In this document: piece after piece, positions 1 through 12,529 of the stretch
Numbering within the stretch: the stretch's first letter is position 1
Layout of the letters: each line of letters starts with the position of its first letter
DNA from: Candidatus Adlerbacteria bacterium
GTDB taxonomy: Bacteria; Patescibacteriota; Minisyncoccia; Phycocordibacterales; SBAW01
DNA length: 42,328 bases
Reading direction: 5' to 3'
NCBI GenBank assembly: GCA_043784925.1
Contig: JAYVXU010000028.1
Span: forward strand, 1 to 42,328
Position numbers and translations under genes: made by a program
The notes under the pieces: model-generated
The model's database searches: none
The model's input: the letters and a program-made list of their open reading frames with translations, nothing else
What the model was told of the DNA's origin: nothing

Positions 1-96
1 GGGCTGTGGAATTTACATATTCAAATGAGTTGAGGAGTAGTGGAATATGCAGGAGAGACAGGGTTGTGTGCGGTTTTTTAATGTGGGGCAGGTCTA
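1..96. mobile_element. Probable terminal segment of an IS3-family-like insertion sequence interrupting the mod gene
   Basis: Mod-like sequence begins abruptly at about 97 (DYVDENDAYRHSKW) and the upstream DPPY motif is absent. The reverse complement of 81-96 is TAGACCTGCCCCACAT, which resembles IS3-family (IS2/IS407-like) terminal inverted repeats recalled from memory. Confidence 0.4.
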
Positions 97-1625
97 ATGA
101 TTATGTGGATGAGAATGATGCCTATCGACACAGTAAATGGATATCGATGATGAATAATCGATTGAAACTATGCAAGGATCTCTTGAAAGAAGATGGGGTA
201 TTGATAGTAACAATTGATAAATACGAAAATGCGACATTGTTAATGTTGCTATCAGAGATATTTTACGGATACGACATTACGTCTGTTGTCATAGAACACA
301 ATCCAAAAGGATTACCGAGTAAGAACTTTTCTTATTCTCATGAGTATGCACATTTTGTGACGCCGTCTGGTCAGTCAGTGGTTGGTAAAAATCCAGAAGG
401 AAAAGAGGATACTCGAAATCTGAGGAGAGCCGGGAAAGCTTCATACAGAGTGGACAGACCGACAATGTTTTATCCGTTATATGTAAAAGATGGGAAGGTC
501 ACTAGAGTTGGGGATATTCCAAAGGACTCATATCATCCAAAATCACGAAACATTCCTTGTAAAAATGGAGAAATCGAGATCTGGCCAATCGACGACGTTG
601 GTGATGAGAGGAGATGGCATTTCGGTCTGGACTCTGTCGGTGATCACATGGAGAGGATTGAGGTCAAGGAGAAAAAGGGAGATATACAACTTTATGTAAC
701 CGCAGTACCTGCGCGCTATAAAACGGTTTGGACAGGAGGTGATCTAGATGCGGGTAAATACGGGACTACTCTCGTAAAAGATATTACAGGAGTAGAGTTT
801 CCTTTTCCGAAATCATTGCTGGCCACGTTGAGGTGTTTGGAGTCGGTAGTCTACACTCGAACCAACGCTTTGGTGCTCGATTTTTTTGCCGGGTCTGGAA
901 CCACGGGCCATGCCGTTCTTGAATTAAACAAACGAGATAAAGGTAATCGAAAGTTTATTCTTTGCACAAATAATGAAAATAATATCTGCGAAGACGTTAC
1001 TTATAAGCGCCTCCGTGGAGTAATTGATGGGTATAAATTTAAAGGCAGAAACAAAACACCACTTTATTCAAAAGAACTAATTCTTTCAGAGCTGATTAGC
1101 CACTCTGAAGAAATAGCAGCAGAAATAGAGTCAATTACGACCGCAAATAAAAAGAAATTCGATAAGATCGAAACAGAATTAGAAGACGGTGTCGTGAGTA
1201 TTTCAGGAATAAAAAATGTAGATGGGAAAATGGAAGGTCTCGGTGGTAATCTTCGTTACTACAAAACTGACCTTGTAGATATTGAAAAGCTCCATCGCAC
1301 GCCCGATCACGCGAAGGTAAAATTAACTCACCAGGCCGGCGAGATGATTGCTCTGCGCGAGGATACTTTGAATGAAGTTGAAAAGAGTGACTGGTGGCAG
1401 ATATTTGAGGGACGCGGAAAAACTACCGCTATCTATTTCAAGGAAGATAAAGAGAAGCTCCAAGAGCTCATTGAGCTATTAGAGAAAAAGAAACAGCCTG
1501 CAACCGTGTATATCTTCAGTTGGGGGAAAAACGAATACAAGAGTGAATACAGCTCGGCAAATATCAGAGTCGAGGATATTCCTGAACCTATTCTTGAGGT
1601 GTACAAAGAAATTAATCGCCTATAA
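97..1625 (+). pseudogene. mod: Type III R-M modification subunit (adenine DNA methyltransferase), 5'-truncated within this window
   Basis: RHSKWISMM, FPFPKS, the SAM-binding motif LDFFAGSGTTGHAV and RKFILCTNNE are present, and the gene lies directly upstream of res. Catalytic motif IV (DPPY) is missing from the visible part. Confidence 0.8.
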
Positions 1626-1630
1626 AATTT

Positions 1631-3943
1631 ATGTTTCCTCTCAAACCATTTCAAGAAATCGCGGTAGCAAAGCTCAAGGATCAGTTTCTTCGGCTTTGGA
1701 AGTCCTCTGGCATACAGCTACCTCTCGTATTCAAGTCGCCAACAGGATCAGGGAAGACGGTCATGCTCGCACAGTTTCTACGCGACTTGGTGGGAGATCC
1801 CCGCTTTGTAGGCAACGATGTCGCATTTTTATGGATGTCTAAGGGACCTACTTTGGTAGAACAAAGTAAGAATAAGCTTTTTGAATACTATGGAGGAGCA
1901 TCGGAGCTCGAGCTTCTAGATATAGACGACCTTAATCGTAAGGTACTGACTCGTAACAGTGTCTTTTTCATAAACTGGGAAAAGCTTAAGGGCCAGTCAA
2001 AAGACGTTTTAAAGATCCGCCGCGAGAATGAGCAAGACATCTCGTTTGATGGAATGATTGAGGCTACACATGAGGAGAAGAGAAAAATTGTCGTAATCAT
2101 CGACGAAGAGCACCTCGGTGCTGATACGGAAAAAGCCCTTGAATTGATTGATGGTCTAATTAAACCAAAGATAATCCTCAGGCTTTCTGCTACGCCTAAA
2201 TATGAGCCGACAGTAAGTGATCTTGAAGATGGTACAGCGGGTTTTGTTCGGGTAAAGAGAGAGGATGTTGTGCGAGAAGGGCTAATTAAGGAAAAAATTA
2301 TCTTTCAGACGGAAGAAGATCTCAATCAAAAACAATTTAGAGGGATGGATCAAAACGAAATTCTGCTTGAGCTCGCCTTTCAAAAGCGAGAGGAACTGCT
2401 TTCGTATTACGGAAAGCTAAAAGTTGATATCAATCCTCTCGTATTGATCCAGCTTCCAAACGACGATAAGGCCAGCTCAGAGACTAGCAATACGAACATG
2501 CAGGAAATTGTAATCAATTTCTTAAAGAAAAAAGGTGTGTCTGAAAATAATATTGCCGTTTGGCTTTCAGAGGACAAGGTTAACTTGAAAGATGTTGAGA
2601 GAAACAACTCATCGGTGTCGTTTCTTCTATTTAAGCAAGCTGTAGCGACCGGCTGGGATTGTCCTCGTGCTGGCGTGCTTGTGATGTTTCGAGAAATCAA
2701 AAACCCAACTTTCGCCATTCAAACAGTTGGACGAATTCTTCGTATGCCGCTTGGTGTTCATTTTGGTAAGCCAGAGCTCAATCTTGGATACCTTTACACC
2801 AACTATAGGAGGAATGAGGTGATTAGTGAATACGATAAGAGCAAGTCTGAAAACAAACCAGCAATATTTGGAAGTTATCGTAAGAAAGACGTCAAGCCAA
2901 TTCAAATCGAGTCTGTTTTTATGAGTCGTTCGGACTATAACGATCTCGGAGATACATTCCAGTCTACTTTTAAAAAGGCTGCGAATGCGTATTTTGGTAT
3001 TAAAGAAAATGATGTCGAAGCGAAGAAAAAACTCGCAGCTAAAAATCTGGAACTAAAACCAAACATAACCAATGGCATCATTGTTGGCGTTGAGATCGAT
3101 GACTATGATAATTTTACCAAAGAGCTATTGGCTGAGGGAGGGAGTCATGAGCAAGAGATGTCCCAGCACGACATTGAAAGACTTTATAACCTTGTTTGTT
3201 TCAATATCATCGGTAAGCAAACTGACGAGAATAAGAAATTTGCCCCTGAGCGCTCATGGGGAAAGCTCAAGACAGCCCTTAATGTTTGGCTATTGCCGGT
3301 CCTTGGAGACGATCGCACTCAAGCGTACAAGGTTATTCTGCATGACTTACTCAAGGAAGGCGGCGTGTTGCGGCCTCTTATTGGAGAGGTTTTAGAGAAA
3401 TATCGACCCATTCGTGATCAAGAAGTAAATAAGAAATCGGTCCGTGCGAAGCGCATAGAGACTATTGAAATTCCACGAGCTTCTCTTTTCTTCACTGATT
3501 TGTACGAAGAAATGAGGGCTAAGAAGTCAGCAATGGAGCCATTTTATATCTCCAAAGAGGTGGTAGATAACGAGAAATCATTTATCAAATTCTTGGATGA
3601 AAACAAGAGTATTGAGTGGTGGTACAAAAACGGTGACTCAGGAAGCGAATACTTCTCAATCTCTTATTACAATTCTGACGAAAATAAAGAGAAGCTTTTT
3701 TATCCTGACTGGATAATTAAGACTAAAAACAAGATCTGGATTATTGATACCAAGGCTGGCTTTACTGCTGAAGCTAACGATACGAAGTATAAGGCCGAAG
3801 CCTTACAGGAGTGGCTCAAAGGCACGAGAGGCTTTAGTGGCGGGATTGCCGTAAAAGATGCTAATGGATGGAAGCTAAACGACAACAAAGAATACGCTTA
3901 CACTCCGGCAATGAAAGGATGGAAGAATATAGATTTTTCATAA
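1631..3943 (+). CDS. res: Type III R-M restriction subunit (SF2 helicase plus PD-(D/E)xK nuclease)
   Basis: SPTGSGKT (Walker A), DEEH, SAT, GWDCPRA and QTVGRILR helicase motifs, plus a C-terminal FYPDW...IDTK nuclease motif. Confidence 0.92.
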   Translation: MFPLKPFQEIAVAKLKDQFLRLWKSSGIQLPLVFKSPTGSGKTVMLAQFLRDLVGDPRFVGNDVAFLWMSKGPTLVEQSKNKLFEYYGGASELELLDIDDLNRKVLTRNSVFFINWEKLKGQSKDVLKIRRENEQDISFDGMIEATHEEKRKIVVIIDEEHLGADTEKALELIDGLIKPKIILRLSATPKYEPTVSDLEDGTAGFVRVKREDVVREGLIKEKIIFQTEEDLNQKQFRGMDQNEILLELAFQKREELLSYYGKLKVDINPLVLIQLPNDDKASSETSNTNMQEIVINFLKKKGVSENNIAVWLSEDKVNLKDVERNNSSVSFLLFKQAVATGWDCPRAGVLVMFREIKNPTFAIQTVGRILRMPLGVHFGKPELNLGYLYTNYRRNEVISEYDKSKSENKPAIFGSYRKKDVKPIQIESVFMSRSDYNDLGDTFQSTFKKAANAYFGIKENDVEAKKKLAAKNLELKPNITNGIIVGVEIDDYDNFTKELLAEGGSHEQEMSQHDIERLYNLVCFNIIGKQTDENKKFAPERSWGKLKTALNVWLLPVLGDDRTQAYKVILHDLLKEGGVLRPLIGEVLEKYRPIRDQEVNKKSVRAKRIETIEIPRASLFFTDLYEEMRAKKSAMEPFYISKEVVDNEKSFIKFLDENKSIEWWYKNGDSGSEYFSISYYNSDENKEKLFYPDWIIKTKNKIWIIDTKAGFTAEANDTKYKAEALQEWLKGTRGFSGGIAVKDANGWKLNDNKEYAYTPAMKGWKNIDFS

Positions 3944-3954
3944 TACGTTAAATC

Positions 3955-6066
3955 ATGGAAACAATTATTGGCAAAAATCTTCTTCACTTACTTAAAAACA
4001 GATTTATTTTGTTTGGGCTTTTTTGTGTTGGGTTTATTGTATCTTTTTATATTCACTCGGGATCATTTTTGCCCAGTACAGACACTAAAGACCTATGGTT
4101 TTACTCGGGTCTTTTTATGGTTCTATTTTCAATTTTATTTATAGAACCTTACTACACGTCCCCAAAGAATGTCATTACAAACGCAATCCCACTCCTCCTC
4201 GTTTTCTTAGCGATCAGGTCATCATTCAATAATCCTATTTTCTGGTGGGGAGCCGTAGCTGTATTATTGTTCCTCCTGCTCACATCGATCATTGCTCTTG
4301 CTTGTGAAGATAAAGATAATAGCCCTGACCATTGGAAAAATAAAACAGCAACAGCTCTAAAAAATATTGTCGTCGTGATTGGACAAGGGAAGATACTCTA
4401 CTCCTCAGTCTTTATTTATTTTTTGCTGACGTACTACTCCATTCAGGATTTCTATACTTTAATTTTATTTGTTTTTTGGTTTCTTATTTTGTGTATCAAT
4501 CCGAAGAATATACACGGTAGTTTTGCAACACTTTCCAAAAAAGAGAACAGCGACCAGATTGGTGAGATATTCGGTGTTCAATCAAAAAAGATTTTTTTAG
4601 TAAAGTTGTTCGAGGATAGAAAAAGTATCAAAAAGTTTGACGTCGTTCGATTTAGTTACTCAATGCAAGATACAAAAGATTTCGTGATTACGGGTATTGT
4701 ATTTGATACCTACTTACTTAACCAAGAGAAGTGGGCAAAGGTCCTCCAGTTAGGGGATCCAAAGAAAGAAAGTGGAAAGCTTGAGAGAAACATCGTCTAC
4801 AAGCTATCTGGTAGCGCAGAAGTCGATGCTGCGAATAAAGAACTAAAAATCAATGACCTTGTTGGTGTTGTTATCGATGGCTCGACCATAGGAAAGATAA
4901 AGTTTGAATATTCTAAAAAAGATGATGATTTACAGGAAGGGGATCTACTTGAGCTGAGGGTCGGCGAAACACGACTATTTTATCAAGTGATTGGAGGAAG
5001 CACAGAAAAAGAAAAACTGGAGGCTCGAAACGAGACTGGCTTTATAGAAGGAGAAGCTATTCAGCTCGGTGAATGGAAAAATGAAGATCTATCTTTTCAA
5101 AAATTCGGTTGGGTTCCGTCCATCAACACACCTATTTTTAAAGCAGATACATCAAAAATAAAAAAGAAGACTTTTACATACCCAAACTACGCATTAGGTA
5201 TTATTCCTGGGACTACATTACCCTCAGTTGTAAATTTGGATGACGCAATTAGTCACCACATGGCACTTTTGGGTATCACAGGATCAGGTAAATCGTTTCT
5301 AGCTCGGGAAATAATTAATCAAATCAAGACAGATACGAAAGTAGTCTGTGTTGATTTTAATAAAGAATTTGTTACTACTCTTACTCCGCCACCGCCTGAT
5401 ATTATTGCGCCTGCGACGGCAACTGCGATTTCTGAGAAAATAGATTGGATAAATACTGAGCTTGAGAAGTTTGGCAATCTTCAGAACAAAGCCTTAATAG
5501 CTCAAAAACAGGGAGAAATCAAAGAACTCATGAAAGGTGAGATAACCCTTTTTCTTGATGATCAAACATGCAACATAAAAGTGTTTGAATTGCCAGATGT
5601 AAGCAACACGACTGGAATCCTTGATTACACGAAGTATTTCTTTAAGGTTTTATTTGAAGTTGCTAAAACGAGACAGGCCACCGGTAACGGTACAAAAATG
5701 TGTGTCGTTCTTGAAGAGGCACACACGGTAATTCCAGAGTGGAACTTTTCTGGTAGCAGTGATAAAACGAGTCAGAGTTTGGTGAATAGTATTGGTCAAA
5801 TTACCCTACAGGGCAGAAAATATGGAGTTGGATTTCTTGTAATAGCGCAAAGAACAGCAAATGTTTCTAAAACAGTCCTTACTCAATGCAATACCGTTGT
5901 TTGTTTTCAAGCTTTTGATGAAACAAGCTTTTCTTTTTTGGGTAATTATGTAGGCAAAGATATAGTCCAAGCCCTGCCAAACTTAAAGCAGTATCACGCG
6001 GTTGTCGCTGGTAAGGGAGCAAAGTCGAACATGCCAATGATCATTGATTTAAGACGCGGCAAATAG
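3955..6066 (+). CDS. Membrane-anchored HerA/FtsK-like ATPase (DUF87-like) with about 6 N-terminal TM helices
   Basis: The first ~185 aa are hydrophobic helices, followed by beta-rich HAS-barrel-like segments. Motifs: HMALLGITGSGKS (Walker A), VVLEEAH (Walker B), QGRKYG and AQR. Confidence 0.85.
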   Translation: METIIGKNLLHLLKNRFILFGLFCVGFIVSFYIHSGSFLPSTDTKDLWFYSGLFMVLFSILFIEPYYTSPKNVITNAIPLLLVFLAIRSSFNNPIFWWGAVAVLLFLLLTSIIALACEDKDNSPDHWKNKTATALKNIVVVIGQGKILYSSVFIYFLLTYYSIQDFYTLILFVFWFLILCINPKNIHGSFATLSKKENSDQIGEIFGVQSKKIFLVKLFEDRKSIKKFDVVRFSYSMQDTKDFVITGIVFDTYLLNQEKWAKVLQLGDPKKESGKLERNIVYKLSGSAEVDAANKELKINDLVGVVIDGSTIGKIKFEYSKKDDDLQEGDLLELRVGETRLFYQVIGGSTEKEKLEARNETGFIEGEAIQLGEWKNEDLSFQKFGWVPSINTPIFKADTSKIKKKTFTYPNYALGIIPGTTLPSVVNLDDAISHHMALLGITGSGKSFLAREIINQIKTDTKVVCVDFNKEFVTTLTPPPPDIIAPATATAISEKIDWINTELEKFGNLQNKALIAQKQGEIKELMKGEITLFLDDQTCNIKVFELPDVSNTTGILDYTKYFFKVLFEVAKTRQATGNGTKMCVVLEEAHTVIPEWNFSGSSDKTSQSLVNSIGQITLQGRKYGVGFLVIAQRTANVSKTVLTQCNTVVCFQAFDETSFSFLGNYVGKDIVQALPNLKQYHAVVAGKGAKSNMPMIIDLRRGK

Positions 6067-6076
6067 TTTCAATACC

Positions 6077-7582
6077 ATGACCCGTCTTATTTCTAAAACA
6101 ATCTTTCAAGAGTTTCTCTATTGTCCAAAAAACATTTGGCTTAAAATCCATAAGCCTGAATTAGCTGCGAAATTCACTCCCTCCGAATTCGAACTACATC
6201 TAATGGAACAAGGGAACGAGGTTGAGTCTCTCGCCCATGGTTTAGATCTTTTTCAAGGAGGTGTCGAGGTGAATTCAAGAGGAGACGAGGCTGTAGCTGA
6301 GACCTCTCGGCTCATGACAGCTCTTACGCCAGTCATCTTCCAAGCAACATTTATCAAAGATGGTTTTGTCGTTCGTAACGATGCTCTCAAGTATGACTCT
6401 GTAAATAAATGCTGGGATCTTTATGAAATTAAGGCCACCAACTCGATACACGAAGGAAAGAAGCGTGATCACATTGTCGACATAACTTTTCAAGCTTCTG
6501 TCTTGAGGCGTGCCAGTGTAATCCACGGCAAATCATCGCACGTAAGACTCAATAAAGAGTATGTTCGGCATGGCGAACTTAATCTAGAGACTCTTTTTGA
6601 GGTTGAGGATGTAACCGAAAAAGTTTCTGAAAGAATGACAGAAGTGGAAGGAAAGATGGAAGTTGCTCTTGAGTATCTCAATAAAGAACAAGAGCCGGTT
6701 GGAGGCTGCGAGTGTGTGTATGGTGTACGAAGAAACCATTGCACGATGTTCTCGTACTCGAATCCACAAATTCCAGAGTATTCCGTGCACGATTTATCTC
6801 GGATACATAAAACAAAACTCCTGTTATTTATGGAGCAAGGAGTACATGGCATTGGTGACATAGAAGATCCTGACGCATACAAGCTTTCTGATAAGCAGAA
6901 AAATCAAGTGCTTGCACATAAGCTGCAGAAACCAATCATAGACATTGAGAAGATTTCAGAAGAGTTGTCGTCACTTAAGTTTCCGCTTTATTTCTTTGAC
7001 TACGAGACATTTCCGCCTGCTGTGCCCCTGTTTGATGGATACGGTCCATACCAACACATCCCATTTCAATTCTCTTTACACATTCTACGAGAGCCAAAGG
7101 GCGAGCTCGAGCATGTTGAATACCTGCAAACTAGTTTTAAAGATCCTTCGTCGGATGTCGCAGAACTTTTGAGACAGCACGTTGTAGGAGGTACTGTCAT
7201 TGCTTGGTATAAGTCATTTGAGACAAGGATCAACAGAGAAATAGGTATACGGTTACCTCAGCATGTCGCTTTCTTTGAGCAGCTAAATAATTCAATGTAT
7301 GACCTGATGGACATTTTCTTTGATCAGCATTACATCCATAACGATTTTAAGGGGAGCGCCTCAATTAAAAAAGTTCTTCCTGTGATAGCACCAGAGCTTC
7401 ACTATAAAGATCTTGAAATACAGGGCGGTGCAGAAGCATCTAAATCCTGGTGGCACATGATTGCACCAAGTACTTCAACTGAAGAACGAGATGGCGTAGC
7501 GAAGAATTTAAAGGAATACTGTGGTCGTGATACATACGCTATGTATGTTATTTGGAAGCATTTGCAGGACATGTGCGAGTAG
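6077..7582 (+). CDS. DUF2779-family protein: RecB/Cas4-like nuclease domain plus RNase H/DnaQ-like exonuclease domain
   Basis: YCPKNIWL, RNDAL, LYEIKAT, DITFQ and a Cys cluster CEC..HC. C-terminal FFDYET, DLMDIF, SIKKVLP and YCGRDT. Confidence 0.8.
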   Translation: MTRLISKTIFQEFLYCPKNIWLKIHKPELAAKFTPSEFELHLMEQGNEVESLAHGLDLFQGGVEVNSRGDEAVAETSRLMTALTPVIFQATFIKDGFVVRNDALKYDSVNKCWDLYEIKATNSIHEGKKRDHIVDITFQASVLRRASVIHGKSSHVRLNKEYVRHGELNLETLFEVEDVTEKVSERMTEVEGKMEVALEYLNKEQEPVGGCECVYGVRRNHCTMFSYSNPQIPEYSVHDLSRIHKTKLLLFMEQGVHGIGDIEDPDAYKLSDKQKNQVLAHKLQKPIIDIEKISEELSSLKFPLYFFDYETFPPAVPLFDGYGPYQHIPFQFSLHILREPKGELEHVEYLQTSFKDPSSDVAELLRQHVVGGTVIAWYKSFETRINREIGIRLPQHVAFFEQLNNSMYDLMDIFFDQHYIHNDFKGSASIKKVLPVIAPELHYKDLEIQGGAEASKSWWHMIAPSTSTEERDGVAKNLKEYCGRDTYAMYVIWKHLQDMCE

Positions 7583-7595
7583 TAATAAAAATTCT

Positions 7596-7772
7596 ATGCT
7601 CACTGATAAAAAAGCCATCAAAGAACTTCAAGCGATACTTAAAAAGGATTATGGTAAAGATGTTTCGAGTGAGGACGCGGCTGATTTGGGGCATCGACTG
7701 CTTCGCTTAACGAGAGTGGGTCTTAGTGCCCAGCTTCGTCTACAACAGCAAAATGAAAAAGATAAAAGGTAA
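7596..7772 (+). CDS. Small hypothetical protein (MGE-associated)
   Basis: ATG 13 nt after the upstream stop. Helical 58-aa ORF MLTDKKAIKELQAILKKDYGKDVS... Confidence 0.55.
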   Translation: MLTDKKAIKELQAILKKDYGKDVSSEDAADLGHRLLRLTRVGLSAQLRLQQQNEKDKR

Positions 7773-7929
7773 CACTCAAACGATTTTTACAGACGAGGAC
7801 ATCCAGTCGTTTGTAGAACTTGGGGAAGTACTGCGGAAAATTCACAATCGGCTTTTGTCCGAGGGTTATGTAATAAAAGATGGCAAGATCATTGCGCCTC
7901 CAACAAAGAAAGAGGAGCTACCTAGATAG
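7753..7929 (+). CDS. Small hypothetical protein (MGE-associated)
   Basis: Overlaps the preceding ORF end. Sequence contains FVELGEVLRKIHNRLLSEGYVIKDGKI. Confidence 0.55.
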   Translation: MKKIKGNTQTIFTDEDIQSFVELGEVLRKIHNRLLSEGYVIKDGKIIAPPTKKEELPR

Positions 7930-8460
7930 GTACTTCGGTCCTAGTAGAGTCATGCCCATCTGCACCTTTGCACGGAGCTTCTCGTAGCGAAGCGTGTATC
8001 GTGTTGGCTTGCCTTTGTAGTTCCGGCACTTGTTCGGATCCATCCTTTCAAACTCCATCAGGTACTTAAAGGTTGGTAGCAGGGAATAGTAATTCATTCG
8101 CTGCGAGAAGTAAGCGAGGCCTAGGCACCTGCGACACCGAAACTCGCCATTGTGGCGGTACAGTACTCCAGATCGCCGGGAGCAGCCGGGGCACTCAAAC
8201 CACTCTCGGTAGCTCCCGAAATGGCAACGGGTACGAAGGAGTGATATGGCACTGCTCGAACTCCTTGGATCCGGCTCAACAAGGTCGAGGTACCAATCTT
8301 GAGCTACAGGATCATGGATTAGCCTCACTTGTGTGCCTCCCAGGGTCAATAAACGCCCCGATGCGCCCCTCTCCCTCGGCGGGGCACTCTTACGCAAGGC
8401 GACCGTGGTTATGGTGCGGTAGCTATCTGTCAGTGGTTTGGCGTCATTGAGTCTGTGCAT
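7918..8460 (-). CDS. Hypothetical Zn-ribbon protein typical of integrated elements
   Basis: WFECPGC...LY...FRCRRCLGLAYFSQ (two CxxC pairs) and a basic C-terminus. Start uncertain (8460 or 8493). Confidence 0.7.
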   Translation of the reverse strand: MHRLNDAKPLTDSYRTITTVALRKSAPPRERGASGRLLTLGGTQVRLIHDPVAQDWYLDLVEPDPRSSSSAISLLRTRCHFGSYREWFECPGCSRRSGVLYRHNGEFRCRRCLGLAYFSQRMNYYSLLPTFKYLMEFERMDPNKCRNYKGKPTRYTLRYEKLRAKVQMGMTLLGPKYLSR

Positions 8461-8719
8461 GGTTGTGTAGCGGATGGAGATTGTCGAAATCAATAAACAT
8501 TATCAGTATTGGTCATTATTGTGATTTTGCCCCTTTAGCCATAGATCCCTTGATAAAACGCCTTTTCCGGCGCCCTGCGCCCTATGCAACTACTTAGTGC
8601 CTTTATGCGGGTCTTATTTAGGCGAGTACGGCCACCGGCGCCACTTGAAAGTTGGCTATCATGTTTAGCTTTTCCTTAACGCCTGCCATATAATCAGGGT
8701 CTGAGAGGATCGTGAGGAA

Positions 8720-8820
8720 CTCTGTTCTAGTAAGTGCACCCCTCTCGCCCAAATAAGGTTTTAATCTAACGGATGGGACTACGTTTCCCTCTGTTGGGTT
8801 AGCTGCACCCCTCTGACCCA
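8720..8820. repeat. Two imperfect 32-bp direct repeats (8720-8751 and 8789-8820), possible att half-sites
   Basis: CTCTGTTCTAGTAAGTGCACCCCTCTCGCCCA versus CTCTGTTGGGTTAGCTGCACCCCTCTGACCCA: 24/32 identical with a 69-bp period. Confidence 0.6.
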
Positions 8821-8828
8821 TTCATTCT

Positions 8829-8857
8829 AAAATAGCTGGCAGTAGGCCAGCTATTTT
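8829..8857. terminator. Intrinsic terminator-like hairpin (bidirectional)
   Basis: AAAATAGCTGGC-AGTAG-GCCAGCTATTTT is a perfect 12-bp inverted repeat. Confidence 0.7.
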
Positions 8858-8868
8858 CTATAGGTGAA

Positions 8869-9041
8869 TGGGTGATCGAAGTCAGGCAAACTGCTTTGCC
8901 TGCGGTGGGACGAAAAAGGCGCAGGCATATTTTTTCAGTAGAAAAAATGCCGAGCCAGGGTCGTGAAAATTTGCACTCGATAGTGTGATGAGGCATCATC
9001 TGCAGTAAAATTATTCCTGACCGAGTCCCATCGATCACCCA
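8869..9041 (+). repeat. Structured palindromic element bounded by inverted and direct copies of a tRNA(His)-like 3' end
   Basis: Right arm CGAGTCCCATCGATCACCCA (9022-9041) reads as T-loop, T-stem, acceptor strand and C73. Left arm TGGGTGATCGA...TGGGAC is its reverse complement. Internal hairpins include ATTTTTTC-AGTA-GAAAAAAT. Confidence 0.65.
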
Positions 9042-9086
9042 AGAAACATTTGTATAAATAAGAGTCGTAGTTTAAGGAGCTTAATG

Positions 9087-9114
9087 TTGATTTTTCTGAT
9101 AACAAGTATATAAT
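9087..9114 (+). promoter_or_regulatory. Sigma70-type promoter of hicBA (probably leaderless)
   Basis: TTGATT-16 nt-TATAAT, with the ATG 6 nt after the -10 box. Confidence 0.6.
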
Positions 9115-9120
9115 CGGGAG

Positions 9121-9369
9121 ATGTCAAATGAGTATGAATATAAAATCGAATACGAAGTAGACAAAGAAACCGGACAGGTTACTGCAACCATCCCAGAACT
9201 CAACCATATCTCATCCTTTGGAGATACTTTTGCTGAAGCAGAAGCTAATGTTCGTGAGGCAGCTCTAGGCTATTTCGAAGTGCTTATGAGCGAAGATAAA
9301 GAAATCCCTAAGCCAGCTTTTCATACAGAGGGGACATATCTTAAGTTCTTTGTTCCAAAAACTGCCTAA
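9121..9369 (+). CDS. hicB: HicB-family antitoxin (short, no obvious DNA-binding domain)
   Basis: ATIPEL...SFGDTFAEAEANVREA...Y...L.....EIPKP, adjacent to hicA. Confidence 0.88.
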   Translation: MSNEYEYKIEYEVDKETGQVTATIPELNHISSFGDTFAEAEANVREAALGYFEVLMSEDKEIPKPAFHTEGTYLKFFVPKTA

Positions 9370-9379
9370 ATTTTATTGT

Positions 9380-9607
9380 ATGGGCAAACTTAGCCGACTG
9401 TCTTCTCGAAAGGTCATCCAAAAACTCAAGAAGGCTGGATTTACTGAAACTCATCAAAGAGGTAGCCATCTTTATCTAAAGAATAAAGATAATACAAAGA
9501 TAGTGACAGTGCCCGTTCATGGGTCAAAAGATATCCCTATCGGAACTCTATATAACATCGTCGTTAGACAAGCAGGTTTATCAGTAGAAGAGTTTAGTAA
9601 CCTATAG
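9380..9607 (+). CDS. hicA: HicA-family mRNA interferase toxin
   Basis: LKKAGF...QRGSH...VTVPVHG..DIPIGTLYNI. Confidence 0.92.
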   Translation: MGKLSRLSSRKVIQKLKKAGFTETHQRGSHLYLKNKDNTKIVTVPVHGSKDIPIGTLYNIVVRQAGLSVEEFSNL

Positions 9608-9835
9608 AACGAGTTTTGTAATTCTTTGATAAAGTGAAACTGCGTCTGGACGATTTTCCATTACCAGCTGGCGGGATCTATTGTCCTGTATGTCATATTG
9701 CCAATACGTCTTTAAGCAAATTACATACCCCTTGCCCGCAGTGTGGTAGAGCACTTTTGCAATTTGGATGGGATTAGAGAATTCCCACAAAAGCAGATTT
9801 AACTCCATTTCATTTTATAACGTTAATATACCTCG

Positions 9836-10792
9836 CTACTGCGCTAAGGAGATGGTTCGGGTGGATTCAGTATTGCTCCATATTCCACGAGTGGTGAGAG
9901 TGAAGGATTGACCTATTGCAGGAGTTAAAAAGTTGAAGGAAACGCCACCACCGCTATCGCTTGGGGTTTGCATCAGCATGTTTCCATTTACCAGTAACTG
10001 CACAGGCTCAAGCGGCGCAAAACTTGAAGCACTAGCCGACATGTGAGAATTCTTGGGTATGTAGTACGTGCTTGGGTTAAGATTTGGATAAAAAGTACCG
10101 ACACCAATGTTCCAGGAAATAGTTTTGCTACTGATGCTGCTAGTAATAGAAAAGGTTTGGGTAGAATGTATAAGAGAGAAGGGGACTAAGTACGGCGCTT
10201 GAGCGCTAAATGACTCTTCTGAATTTGCTGAGAAAGTGTTCACCCCCGTTGGTGTATGAAGAGTGATTTGCTCTAATGGAGCAAAACCATTTCCTGAAAA
10301 GCTTATTGTTTGCCCCGGCAACACATACCAAGTTGAGGGCCAGCCCCAAGGGTAATATGCTACAGGTTGTGAAATGACAAAGGTTGCGGTCGGGGACCCA
10401 GGGAGCCCAGGAAAAACTACATGGTAGGAGCCGGGTGCCACGGCGCTGCCTTCTTGGTTTAATCCATTCCAACTATCTAGGAACAGTGATTGAGGTTGCG
10501 TGCTTGTTGTAGAACCAGTGCTAGGTTGATATACAGTATTTCCACTGTGGTCGGTAATTTGCCACGGGTGGGTCCCGCTCAGAAATAAAGGATTGTGTGT
10601 ATTGTCTGCAAGGCAAAAATGTACCGCGCTACCAGGACTGTAACTAGCTTGCGAGGTTGCAACTACATAGCCTATACCTCCTGTTGTGTTGCAGTAAGTC
10701 GGAACTTCAGCAAAAACGGCGGGAGTCGCGAACAAAAAACTCAAGGATAAGACGCTTGCACTAACCAGAGATTTTAAAAATAAAGTATTCAT
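9836..10792 (-). CDS. Secreted or surface protein with Ig-like beta domains
   Basis: Signal peptide (..TPAVFA-E), a FlgD-Ig-like segment WNGLNQEGSAVAPGSY, and a repeated FAPLE motif. Confidence 0.75.
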   Translation of the reverse strand: MNTLFLKSLVSASVLSLSFLFATPAVFAEVPTYCNTTGGIGYVVATSQASYSPGSAVHFCLADNTHNPLFLSGTHPWQITDHSGNTVYQPSTGSTTSTQPQSLFLDSWNGLNQEGSAVAPGSYHVVFPGLPGSPTATFVISQPVAYYPWGWPSTWYVLPGQTISFSGNGFAPLEQITLHTPTGVNTFSANSEESFSAQAPYLVPFSLIHSTQTFSITSSISSKTISWNIGVGTFYPNLNPSTYYIPKNSHMSASASSFAPLEPVQLLVNGNMLMQTPSDSGGGVSFNFLTPAIGQSFTLTTRGIWSNTESTRTISLAQ

Positions 10793-10831
10793 GGAAGTAG
10801 TATACAGTTCTGCTACTGTGACTTCGATGAA

Positions 10832-11326
10832 CTACCTAAAATCAGTACCCACTATGTTCGAGCCTACAAACTTCTCGAGTTTATCGAGCTGCTGATTGAA
10901 GCCATGCTCCATCCCTTGGACTGCCATACCCGCTTTCGGGCCAGTTTTTTGAATTGCGGCTTTAATTTCGATTTGAGTACGTTCTCCCTCCTCGGTAAAA
11001 ATAATTTCAGTGGTCTGGTCGATGAGAGTTTCTTCCTTTTGCCCCTCCGTCCATGCTTGCGCTGTATAGGCAAGCATTGCATGTGGGTCCACAGTAGTAA
11101 ATTCGGCCAACATAGGCCACAACACTCCTTTGTAAGGACCCATGCCTTCGCCCGCCTCCATAACAATATAAAATTTGCCCCCAACATGCAGGTCAACTTC
11201 ACATTCGAGGATGCTGACATTTTGGGGTCCCCACCATTGTTTTAATTGTTCAGGGTCGGTCCAAACTTGCCATACTTTTTGCATCGGAGCATCGACAGTC
11301 CGAACTAATGTAATTTCTTTTTCCAT
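10832..11326 (-). CDS. SRPBCC/AHSA1-domain protein
   Basis: ITLVRTVDAPMQKVWQVWTDPEQLKQWWGP...DLHVGG...GFNQQLDKL. Start reassigned to the ATG at 11326. Confidence 0.9.
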   Translation of the reverse strand: MEKEITLVRTVDAPMQKVWQVWTDPEQLKQWWGPQNVSILECEVDLHVGGKFYIVMEAGEGMGPYKGVLWPMLAEFTTVDPHAMLAYTAQAWTEGQKEETLIDQTTEIIFTEEGERTQIEIKAAIQKTGPKAGMAVQGMEHGFNQQLDKLEKFVGSNIVGTDFR

Positions 11327-11417
11327 ATAATTTGTTGAAATAATGCTGCACGATCGTACTTTAGTCAACATGACAGACACATGAGTATATAAATAGAGAA
11401 CCTGGTATAGTTCCTCT

Positions 11418-11903
11418 ATGCAATTTGAGGAAGGACGTGAAAAGCAAATTAGGGAAATTTTCAGGTTTAGTGTCTTTCTCAAAGCCGCGAACGCAATCCT
11501 CGAAACTATTGGTGGTGGCCTCCTTCTAAGCGGCTCGCTTATTGGGTGGGTGAGGGGACTTGTGGAGCAACAGATAGCGCAGGATCCGGGGGATTTTGCC
11601 AGCTCTTTTTTACAACATATATTGCCGTATCTCTCTTCCCATGCCCAATTTTTTGCGGCGTGGTATTTGCTGAGTCATGGAGTAATTAAACTCTTTTTAG
11701 CTATAGGGTTGTTGCGTAATCAGTTGTGGGCATACCCTTCGGCAATTGCTGTCTTTGTCTTTTTTGTTGTGTACCAAGTATATCGTTATACCTATACGCA
11801 CTCGCCCCTTCTTTTGTTAATCACTTTCTTTGATGTGCTCGTAATAGGGCTCACGTGGCATGAGTATACTGTAGTGAAAAATGCATCAAAAAAAGTATTA
11901 TAG
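11418..11903 (+). CDS. DUF2127-like membrane protein
   Basis: KAANAILETIGG, YLLSHGVIKL, LWAYP, YQVYRY and LTWHEY motifs; multiple TM helices. Confidence 0.8.
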   Translation: MQFEEGREKQIREIFRFSVFLKAANAILETIGGGLLLSGSLIGWVRGLVEQQIAQDPGDFASSFLQHILPYLSSHAQFFAAWYLLSHGVIKLFLAIGLLRNQLWAYPSAIAVFVFFVVYQVYRYTYTHSPLLLLITFFDVLVIGLTWHEYTVVKNASKKVL

Positions 11904-11956
11904 AGGTATGGTTCATATTCATTAAAAACTCATAGAAGATAAGCATAATAGAGCCT

Positions 11957-12457
11957 ATGAAAAAGATTATATTTGCAGTACTGGCCCTTCCTTTAATTAT
12001 TGTTATTGCGGTCCCACGACTTAGTCAGGCGTATAGAAATGTGGTAACTGCCCCCAATTGGTGTGGTAGCTACTGGTCTTCCCATTCTTGTACTAATCAG
12101 CAAAATAATTATTATGGATACGGACAGTACCCCACCTACTCTATGAATTCGAGTGCATATAATACTCCTATGCAGTATTCGAATAACAATAATTACTACT
12201 CTTCAAACCAGGTATATGCGACTCCGTTTGCGTACACCTACGTAAACCAATATTCAAACCCCTATACTCAAAACCAATATATGTATACAAACCCAACGTA
12301 CTCATACCAAACGCAATCAGCTTCGCCGTATTACGAAACCCAAGGCTATTCTTCCTATAGCTACAACGGTTACGAAAACACGTACTATTCTTACCCACCT
12401 TCTTATTCTTATACAGCAACTCCGTATAATAGTAATAACTATTACTACCAGTACTAA
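11957..12457 (+). CDS. Secreted low-complexity Tyr/Asn/Ser/Gln-rich protein
   Basis: N-terminal signal peptide or TM helix, a Cys pair, then a Y/N/S/Q/T/P-rich tail. Followed by a terminator. Confidence 0.7.
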   Translation: MKKIIFAVLALPLIIVIAVPRLSQAYRNVVTAPNWCGSYWSSHSCTNQQNNYYGYGQYPTYSMNSSAYNTPMQYSNNNNYYSSNQVYATPFAYTYVNQYSNPYTQNQYMYTNPTYSYQTQSASPYYETQGYSSYSYNGYENTYYSYPPSYSYTATPYNSNNYYYQY

Positions 12458-12480
12458 TTCAGAATTTAGACCCGCAACTT

Positions 12481-12508
12481 CAAAAAGAGTGGACAGCCAC
12501 TCTTTTTG
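12481..12508. terminator. Intrinsic terminator
   Basis: CAAAAAGAGTGG-ACAG-CCACTCTTTTTG. Confidence 0.8.
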
Positions 12509-12529
12509 TTTGTGGTGTACAATCATGTC

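Follow-up and report, generated by a model that had tools for sequence, protein, structure and literature searches.

HerA proteins form hexamers that are loaded onto the ends of DNA and act together with nucleases or effectors; their rings are familiar as motors of repair and as the scaffolds of a few anti-phage systems. Described here is a HerA-type ATPase with a membrane domain of its own, TM-HerA (for transmembrane HerA), encoded on a 42,328-nucleotide stretch of a Candidatus Adlerbacteria genome (contig JAYVXU010000028.1 of GenBank assembly GCA_043784925.1). This stretch, the whole of contig C28 in our numbering, is called the window, and the genome to which it belongs (G000) amounts to 1.06 Mb in 62 contigs and is 89.8% complete. 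In the window TM-HerA is the third gene of an operon that begins with the type III restriction-modification (R-M) genes mod and res and ends with the gene for a nuclease of the DUF2779 family. We tentatively read the cargo of the genomic island holding these genes as a type III mod-res operon with two independent passengers, TM-HerA and DUF2779, that may act on DNA ends, and for both passengers defence is the most likely role. TM-HerA occurs in hundreds of species of many phyla and is repeatedly nested in R-M operons of every type, and if it is a defence gene it would add a membrane-located step to restriction. New in the present analysis are the splitting of mod by an insertion sequence (IS), the island at a tRNA-His gene, an association of DUF2779 in its own right with R-M and helicase-nuclease genes, fusions of TM-HerA to a nuclease module, and the parallel with ICETh1 of Thermus.

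Described systems and the locus in the window

Passengers within R-M operons have an established paradigm in the PrrC anticodon nuclease of EcoprrI, which sits between hsdM/hsdS and hsdR and is co-carried with the R-M genes. TM-HerA is likewise nested in type I operons and shares its loci with RhuM and Fic as further passengers; PrrC differs in belonging to an unrelated protein family, presumably with an unrelated mechanism.

A characterised analogue of the whole arrangement is ICETh1 of Thermus thermophilus. Its operon is reported to encode the type IIG enzyme TthHB27I/Tth111II, NurA, TdtA and a methylase, TdtA being a hexameric membrane-bound ATPase of the HerA/FtsK family; genetics showed that DNA donation to competent cells needs the restriction enzyme, NurA and TdtA, and the operon lies in a 14,857-bp island within a tRNA gene and between direct repeats (PMC5365140; PMC7767461). 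The window has a layout of the ICETh1 type, in that an R-M enzyme, a nuclease and a membrane-associated ATPase of the HerA/FtsK family form an operon in a tRNA-integrated island of about 15 kb with direct repeats. The nuclease is DUF2779 and the R-M system type III in the window, whereas they are NurA and type IIG in ICETh1. TdtA, of about 64 kDa, is called a membrane-binding or membrane protein in the accessible text, which mentions no transmembrane block, while the HerA of the window has a block of six helices. DNA donation by ICETh1 has been established by genetics; the locus in the window is known from its genes alone, and its relatedness to TdtA is at the superfamily level.

Among anti-phage and repair systems, SIR2-HerA (Nezha/Gao19), DUF4297-HerA and archaeal HerA-NurA share the HAS-barrel and HerA fold of the window protein, with Foldseek E values of 1e-17 to 1e-15 to the entries 9c1m, 8zir, 8wld, 8sub and 9x1m. 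The Walker and arginine-finger residues are conserved in it as in the anti-phage HerAs. These pair with a DNA- or NAD-degrading effector, whereas in the window no SIR2, DUF4297 or NurA gene is adjacent and the neighbours are Res and DUF2779. The protein does not group with SIR2-HerA or DUF4297-HerA, lacking an adjacent effector gene and staying below the curated score, nor is it one half of a HerA-NurA pair, the adjacent nuclease carrying PF11074 with Cas4 and DEDD folds. No solved HerA is known to have an N-terminal membrane domain.

The capture of HerA/FtsK motors by restriction-type systems has also been described, and for these systems (DndH and relatives) it is proposed that the motor brings invader DNA to a nuclease (PMC10853773). 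The likeness lies in the repeated recruitment of a HerA/FtsK-type motor into restriction-type anti-invader systems. The partners there are Dnd, Orc/Cdc6 and D5-helicase fusions or operons, and a membrane HerA in classical R-M operons goes unmentioned in the accessible text. Full-text searches, which do not cover subscription journals, turned up nothing on a HerA that is anchored in the membrane and nested in R-M operons. Matches found for DUF87 together with restriction were irrelevant, one being DUF874 in H. pylori and another a gene of an integrative and conjugative element in M. felis.

The four open reading frames (ORFs) of the operon lie co-oriented on the plus strand at 3-1625, 1631-3943, 3955-6066 and 6077-7582 (junctions inspected), the first of them open at the first base of the window. 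The gaps mod/res, res/TM-HerA and TM-HerA/DUF2779 are 5, 11 and 10 nt, just as the initial annotation of this DNA had it, and its gene identities (Mod, Res, membrane HerA, dual nuclease) also hold on the strength of profiles, AlphaFold2 models, Foldseek matches and conserved residues. The gene start that it placed at 97 has to be given up: 97-1625 spans 1529 nt, which is no multiple of three, and is out of frame.

A HerA family with its own membrane domain

TM-HerA (3955-6066, plus strand, 703 residues) matches DUF87 at 2.2e-11, and its best PADLOC HerA model (4.4e-29) covers the C-terminal third only (residues about 521-699). The N-terminal 190 residues are hydrophobic, and the predicted architecture consists of some six transmembrane helices (1-185), a beta-barrel (about 200-420) and an ATPase domain of the HerA/FtsK type (about 423-703). 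An AlphaFold2 model built from 70 sequences, with a predicted local distance difference test score (pLDDT) of 86.1, has the helical block, the beta-barrel and the ATPase domain. In Foldseek the top matches of the soluble part are Sulfolobus HerA 4d2i (8.3e-19), HerA-DUF4297, HerA-NurA and SIR2-HerA, all at 13-19% identity, and the titles of the matched Protein Data Bank (PDB) entries show complexes of HerA with nucleases or effectors. Residues G440, T442, G443, G445 and K446 of Walker A, E587 and E588 of Walker B, R621 and Q632 are invariant in the 70 sequences, and so the marks of the HerA clade are present, namely a HAS-barrel, a GxTGxGK Walker A, an EE Walker B, an arginine finger and the HerA fold. 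The NCBIfam models of the named anti-phage HerA families, NF042943 and NF042944, give 61-64 bits against cut-offs of 800-850, which puts TM-HerA outside these families.

A search of 1.84 billion cluster representatives with the transmembrane domain gave 288 proteins (E up to 1e-3), of which 150 were listed. The long ones in this list, of about 600-760 residues, have the same architecture, except for P0316 (discussed below) and two long proteins that align in many short stretches; the shorter ones are presumably fragments. P0371, a distant match with 22% identity in the transmembrane region, can be aligned from end to end and so also in the ATPase. To judge from these sequences the domain appears to accompany essentially only the TM-HerA ATPase among the matches listed, and not to be a promiscuous anchor. 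The ESM Atlas searched with the same domain gave no usable match.

The top 120 relatives, at 62-79% identity, include named members of the Omnitrophota, Bacteroidia, Legionella, Phycisphaerae and several groups of the candidate phyla radiation (CPR). By contrast no true homologue was found in 60 relatives of the genome, where only Walker-A noise was picked up. In the collection of species-representative genomes 283 stretches match. We read TM-HerA as a large, unnamed and horizontally mobile family.

TM-HerA in R-M operons of all types

The neighbourhood survey took the best-scoring 80 of the 283 stretches with flanks of up to 10 kb, which is no random sample, and relatives are not independent of each other. 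All 1288 ORFs were clustered all-against-all and the clusters named with Pfam; R-M labels came from a few home-made profiles, which under-call R-M genes. HsdM, HsdS, HsdR, RhuM, tyrosine and serine recombinases, C5 and N6/N4 methylases, Fic, SLFN/AlbA_2, GmrSD and PIN recur beside TM-HerA. An R-M gene on the same strand lies within three genes of TM-HerA in 29 of the 78 loci with a callable HerA ORF; in 21 it is directly beside it and in 11 there is one on both sides. By position the R-M share is 25% at −1, 15% at −2 and again at −3, 12% at +1, and 0-8% beyond five genes. HerA had been proposed to be functionally tied to R-M, which fits these counts, the share being highest close to HerA.

In type I loci the orders hsdM-PIN-hsdS-HerA-hsdR (L045) and hsdM-HerA-hsdS-hsdR (L004) are met, in type IIG an enzyme of the MmeI type is followed by HerA (L039), in type II an AlwI restriction endonuclease and a methylase precede it (L013), and the Mod-Res-HerA order of the window recurs in the type III locus L062. 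The conserved link is that of TM-HerA with R-M operons of every type (type I, type II, type IIG and type III). On a tree of 70 TM-HerA proteins the R-M type does not cluster; it needs 10 changes, where shuffling gives 10.0 on average. The nearest relative of the window protein, 78% identical, is that of L004, an Omnitrophota type I operon without DUF2779.

Two details of this survey stand on their own. L045 and L020 have a PIN_12 gene between hsdM and hsdS and TM-HerA between hsdS and hsdR, hence two passengers in one type I operon. In L016 and L041, from Gracilibacteria and Peribacteria, the HerA and R-M genes are split into many short ORFs under table 11, a pattern of breaks that looks like another genetic code with TGA read as a residue, and by eye HerA lies between HsdM and HsdR in both.

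The DUF2779 nuclease and its own associations

The 501-residue product of 6077-7582 (plus strand) matches PF11074 at 2.7e-35 (family cut-off 23.3 bits) and, weakly, Cas4 (1.8e-3). It is made up of an N-terminal Cas4/EXO5-like PD-(D/E)XK domain with four cysteines and a C-terminal domain like DEDDy 3'-5' exonucleases. D102, E117, K119, C16, C211, C222, D308, E310, E382 and D409 are invariant in 29 sequences of the family, and conservation is 90% or higher for C213, Y481 and D485. In the AlphaFold2 model from these sequences (pLDDT 93.0) the N-terminal half is matched by Foldseek to Cas4 7mi4/8d3l (4.4e-4), 4ic1, 4r5q, human EXO5 7lw7, RecE and lambda exonuclease, and the C-terminal half to TREX1, CAF1 and polymerase exonuclease domains; a profile of the 29 sequences run against PDB sequences gave no match at E up to 1. 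With PF11074, the Cas4-type cysteines and the DEDD residues the protein is a member of the Cas4-DEDD family. Its description as a dual nuclease is borne out by the fold matches, the D-ExK triad, the four cysteines and the DEDDy residues, and agrees with the Cas4-like N terminus and DEDDh/y C terminus inferred for the family in the accessible text of two papers (PMC13621843; PMC3985635). The family is quasi-essential in a minimal Mycoplasma cell (PMC13621843). Nucleases of the MMSYN1_0389 type described there share the Pfam family and the two-domain make-up with the window protein; the Mycoplasma protein keeps two of the four cysteines (PMC13621843), whereas the window protein and its relatives keep all four.

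DUF2779 is found in seven of the 60 relatives, none of the seven having TM-HerA, and its neighbours were read in L097 and L099-L103, with L098 left out. It follows Mod-Res in L103, a 906-residue Res with a RE_endonuc domain in L102, a C5 methylase and a NgoFVII-like restriction endonuclease in L097, and a Schlafen-type helicase and a gene resembling uracil-DNA glycosylase in L099. In L100 it comes after housekeeping genes (large RNA polymerase subunit, dnaG, rpoD) and in L101 it is beside a divergently oriented protein kinase gene. The idea that in the window it is a resident core gene merely abutting the island was rejected, given its presence in only seven of the 60 relatives and its position inside the attachment (att) repeats.

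A metagenome survey covered 80 loci of the same DUF2779 subfamily, at 39-62% identity. R-M labels are found no more than three genes away in 11 of 79, and in 10 of 79 a same-strand upstream gene encodes at least 800 residues. Ten upstream proteins that were inspected are one SNF2 helicase, six superfamily 1 (SF1) helicases, one tRNA synthetase, one sigma-70 and one without a family. The SF1 helicases (DUF4011, AAA_11, AAA_12), which DUF2779 directly follows in L117, L127, L134, L156, L180 and L105, are in five of the six cases fused to an MTES_1575/DUF559 endonuclease, and in CPR-like contigs of metagenomes the SF1 helicase-endonuclease with DUF2779 may recur as a unit of two genes. DUF2779 thus tends by itself to trail R-M genes and DNA motor-nuclease genes, independent of TM-HerA. 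Such a link goes unmentioned for nucleases of the MMSYN1_0389 type in the accessible portions of PMC13621843 and PMC3985635, and it gives the family a first functional context.

Pairing of TM-HerA with DUF2779 and fusion to other nucleases

Where the two families meet in the TM-HerA survey (L008, L034, L071 and L078) they are always adjacent, DUF2779 lying upstream in three and downstream in one, and two of the four pairings overlap by 4 nt. On the HerA tree the five rows with an adjacent DUF2779 need at least four changes and do not cluster (shuffled mean 4.7), so that the pairing is recurrent but facultative. The arrangement at L078:4-12031, from Flagellimonas, is Mod - Res (RE_endonuc) - SNF2 helicase - DUF4391 - DUF2779 - TM-HerA, with a 3-nt gap between DUF4391 and DUF2779 and a 4-nt overlap between DUF2779 and TM-HerA, and in L071, from the sister species, DUF2779 is split into two ORFs. 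A complex prediction with HerA residues 205-703 and DUF2779 scored 0.00 (mark 0.32) and is evidence neither way.

TM-HerA also occurs in fusions to a nuclease module. P0316 (1273 residues) has a TM-HerA part that is 26% identical over residues 16-699 (E 2e-79), followed by an extension of 554 residues. The extension has 203 relatives, of which seven clusters (P0316, P0393-P0397 and P0402) are TM-HerA fusions of 1270-1312 residues. It is also carried by von Willebrand factor A (vWA) proteins, by proteins with a UvrD-type helicase and an RNase_T exonuclease, by proteins bearing PF14903 and by proteins with other domains. Several of its relatives carry PF12705 (PDDEXK_1), one is named in its source a very-short-patch-repair endonuclease, and by eye the extension seems to bear motifs that are Vsr-like and RecB-like or PDDEXK-like. 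Its occurrence on many different types of protein suggests a mobile nuclease module. Between it and DUF2779 no relation was detectable, hhalign of the DUF2779 alignment against P0316 giving a probability of 0.09. The fusions imply that part of the TM-HerA family works with nucleases, and they lend support to the translocase-nuclease logic with which this locus had been read from the outset.

The type III genes and their interruption

The mod part in the window (96-1625, plus strand) holds the target recognition domain, the FxGxG region and the C terminus, and with PF01555 at 4e-21 and PADLOC MTase_III at 5.3e-47 it has the profile of a type III Mod. Directly after it, res (1631-3943, plus strand, 770 residues) has that of a type III Res, with ResIII at 5.9e-14 and PADLOC REase_III at 2.8e-18, and is full-length against the Res of the Mod-Res pair of a relative, G003, at 40% identity over 781 residues. 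Res has a motor of the superfamily 2 helicase type and a putative C-terminal nuclease motif resembling PD...D-x-K, the motif being assigned by eye.

The frame of mod resumes at base 96, and bases 1-95 are the right end of an IS whose 17-bp terminal inverted repeat is at 79-95. The first 116 codons of mod, with the DPPY motif, are on another contig of the genome, C46, at 12163-12510 (start codon at 12163). G003 Mod accordingly matches C46:12181-12513 with residues 21-124 and the window at 105-290 with residues 136-198. At C46:12511, right after codon 116, the sequence turns into the 17-bp element AGAC(T/C)TGCCCCACATTA (C46:12511-12527), of which the inverted copy is that at window 79-95; the triplet AAT flanks both ends of the IS, and both halves of mod share one frame across it. 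The 17-mer occurs 77-97 nt from five contig edges, the ends of C9, C38 and C46 and the starts of C28 and C59, as expected of an IS in several copies at which the assembly was interrupted, and four of the five edges have one arm, the other being at the window only. Window 1-96 is contained in a 1008-nt contig. Runs X1 and X2, from which this DNA may stem, give this contig a depth of 118.8x and 106.9x and the main contig one of 21.4x and 19.5x, and some 5.5 copies of the IS follow from the ratio. The IS is roughly 1 kb long, its interior and transposase being absent from the bin.

Runs X3 and X4, other samples of the same study that hold small shares of the window, were used only for a contig bridging the IS. 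This contig, of 190 nt (depth about 3, two differences), covers 96-198 without the IS, and upstream of this part its 30 letters are the same as those of C46 right up to the IS. It shows that a related population has an uninterrupted mod allele, that C46 and C28 are neighbours and that the insertion is recent. Type III Res requires Mod for target recognition; with mod split after codon 116 the two genes are not both intact, and this genome most likely has neither working restriction nor working modification. A HerA-nuclease pair backing up this R-M system, as first proposed, would here have a broken partner. Further Mod-like methyltransferase ORFs are present in the genome at C38:5642-6742 and C58:36001-36843 (524 and 621 aa), and a copy of the IS is found at the end of C38 too.

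A tRNA-His island holding the operon

The tRNA-His gene at C46:6719-6792 is overlapped on the opposite strand by the 3' end of a gene for a large serine recombinase of 549 residues, with Resolvase, Recombinase and Zn_ribbon_recom domains. Between this gene and mod, C46 encodes a 174-residue resolvase and three ORFs without assignment. Exact copies of a 23-bp direct repeat lie in the same orientation at C46:6774-6796 and window 9022-9044 (plus strand; blastn-short E 1.2e-8 against 7 kb); the repeat consists of the last 19 nt of tRNA-His and 4 nt more, and its window copy is attR-like. An island integrated by a serine recombinase, from tRNA-His to window 9044 and about 14.7 kb without the IS, is supported by these observations, and all four operon genes are inside its repeats. 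The statement in the initial annotation that the operon lies in an integrated island could not be read off the window alone and gained its support once C46 had been joined, with the tRNA-His gene, the recombinase and the repeat. A tRNA gene search of the window found none. An empty site was looked for by comparing window 9045-12500 with the 60 relatives, giving only short matches of 67-96% identity, the relatives being too divergent. A PHROGs scan of the unassigned ORFs of the island returned no terminase or other phage function; the recombinases match integrase families.

Functional readings of the locus

In the reading that we tentatively prefer, membrane-anchored hexameric HerA rings would load on double-stranded DNA ends, such as would arise when a restriction enzyme cuts unmodified invader DNA, and would thread the DNA using ATP. 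The adjacent dual nuclease (Cas4-like 5'-3' plus DEDDy 3'-5') would then degrade both strands, a task that with archaeal HerA falls to NurA, and the outcome would be a second line preventing the repair or expression of cut phage or plasmid DNA. The coupling of HerA to DUF2779 would be facultative, and the first line would be off in this genome. A membrane hexamer engaging DNA ends and a nuclease chewing both strands are inferred by analogy with the HerA systems above. There are a number of points that weigh against this. A cytoplasmic role in end resection leaves the conserved membrane domain unexplained. With mod interrupted, cooperation with restriction cannot operate now in this genome. In 49 of the 78 loci no labelled same-strand R-M gene lies within three genes, so that the ATPase cannot depend on adjacent R-M, some of the 49 holding R-M enzymes without a label. 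DUF2779 is present in four of the 80 TM-HerA loci, a count resembling those of other co-passengers (RhuM with 10 labelled ORFs, Fic and SLFN with 6 each, GmrSD with 4), and TM-HerA is beside DUF2779 in none of the 80 metagenome loci, going by labels, and in none of the seven relatives. The tree that bears on the independence of the pairings is a weakness as well, being a quick maximum-likelihood one with support from the Shimodaira-Hasegawa-like approximate likelihood ratio test (SH-aLRT) only.

The same numbers bear most heavily on the form in which the locus was first interpreted, as an obligate TM-HerA-DUF2779 translocase-nuclease pair making up a new defence system that backs up R-M. The genes are indeed adjacent, co-oriented and tightly spaced in the window (10 nt) and in L008, L034, L071 and L078, HerA-nuclease partnerships are known (NurA, DUF4297; titles of PDB entries), and fusions of TM-HerA to another nuclease module exist. 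A regular two-gene module would nevertheless not be adjacent in as few as 4/80, 0/80 and 0/7 cases, its closest HerA relative at 78% (L004) would not do without DUF2779 in a type I operon, and the fused module shows no similarity to DUF2779 in hhalign. The neighbourhood surveys, of which the initial annotation had asked for that of TM-HerA, found the two families together rarely, an outcome that it had itself named among those that would refute it; the obligate pair is largely refuted and very unlikely. At the other extreme R-M, TM-HerA and DUF2779 would have no functional coupling and be separate cargo in insertion-tolerant spots. TM-HerA would then be a single-gene abortive-infection protein, with an ATPase that senses invader DNA or proteins and a membrane domain that is the effector (for instance a depolarising one), and it may guard when restriction is inhibited, as PrrC does for EcoprrI, back-up genes nested between hsdS and hsdR being an established paradigm. 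No partner gene is common to the 80 loci, where the only large neighbour clusters are HsdM/S, HsdR, RhuM and recombinases, and this agrees with such a view, as do the 49 loci without a nearby R-M label, the conserved membrane domain that among the 150 matches listed goes essentially only with the TM-HerA ATPase, and the occurrence of DUF2779 without TM-HerA in seven relatives and 80 metagenome loci. It has more difficulty with four independent, directly adjacent and co-oriented DUF2779 pairings, two of them with a 4-nt overlap, and with the location of TM-HerA within R-M operons, in many cases between the genes for specificity and restriction, which suggests co-expression; complete independence is rather unlikely.

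A DNA-secretion module of the transjugation kind had not been considered for the locus, despite the characterised analogue in ICETh1 of Thermus (PMC5365140). Res would nick or cut resident DNA, the nuclease would trim it and HerA would pump double-stranded DNA out, and competent neighbours would take up the exported DNA, spreading the island and other genes as in ICETh1. The window has the four kinds of part of ICETh1 in a tRNA-His island of about 14.7 kb with direct repeats, and a six-helix membrane domain fits a DNA conduit across the membrane better than it does a cytoplasmic role. A recombinase is labelled within 10 kb in 16 of the 80 TM-HerA loci. Near-identical proteins across phyla and a tree that does not follow taxonomy would suit a gene promoting transfer, but wide horizontal spread is equally typical of defence genes. 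The resemblance to ICETh1, a striking one, is in parts and island format, and the partner of TdtA is NurA while that in the window is DUF2779. Moreover 76 of the 80 loci have no adjacent nuclease of the DUF2779 type and 49 of 78 no nearby R-M gene to make the ends, and co-passengers such as RhuM, Fic, SLFN/AlbA, GmrSD and PIN are typical of defence islands. Secretion by the locus is a serious rival, though an unlikely one. A still bolder extension, a widespread six-helix-HerA DNA-export system that is fed ends by R-M enzymes and trimmed by DUF2779 or by the Vsr-like/PDDEXK module, is more unlikely again, and so is its corollary that donation to competent neighbours would drive the spread between phyla, ultra-small CPR bacteria included. 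Were TM-HerA a DNA exporter, R-M operons would become gene-transfer agents well beyond Thermus and there would be a handle on DNA exchange in CPR bacteria. The two-passenger reading with defence as the role thus keeps our tentative preference.

Other features of the island and its surroundings

Downstream of the operon the island continues to its right-hand repeat through 7583-9021, which has no assigned function and contains unassigned ORFs only, one of 191 residues on the minus strand (7918-8493) and several of 58-85 residues. G+C in this right arm is 0.506 (8001-9000) against about 0.37-0.43 in the operon. Its ORFs have no Pfam or PHROGs family, and an Rfam scan of 7400-10000 at E up to 0.1 was empty. 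Consensus scans of 1-10000 for promoters and terminators showed no excess over shuffled sequence (15 against 19.0 and 6 against 8.2) and so do not bear on the transcription units. Beyond about 9.8 kb housekeeping genes such as nusG and rplK follow. In the left arm the three ORFs between the recombinases and mod (156, 237 and 227 residues; C46:8983-11903, L192) are without a Pfam family, and that of 227 residues matches two PHROGs families of unknown function (4.7e-6).

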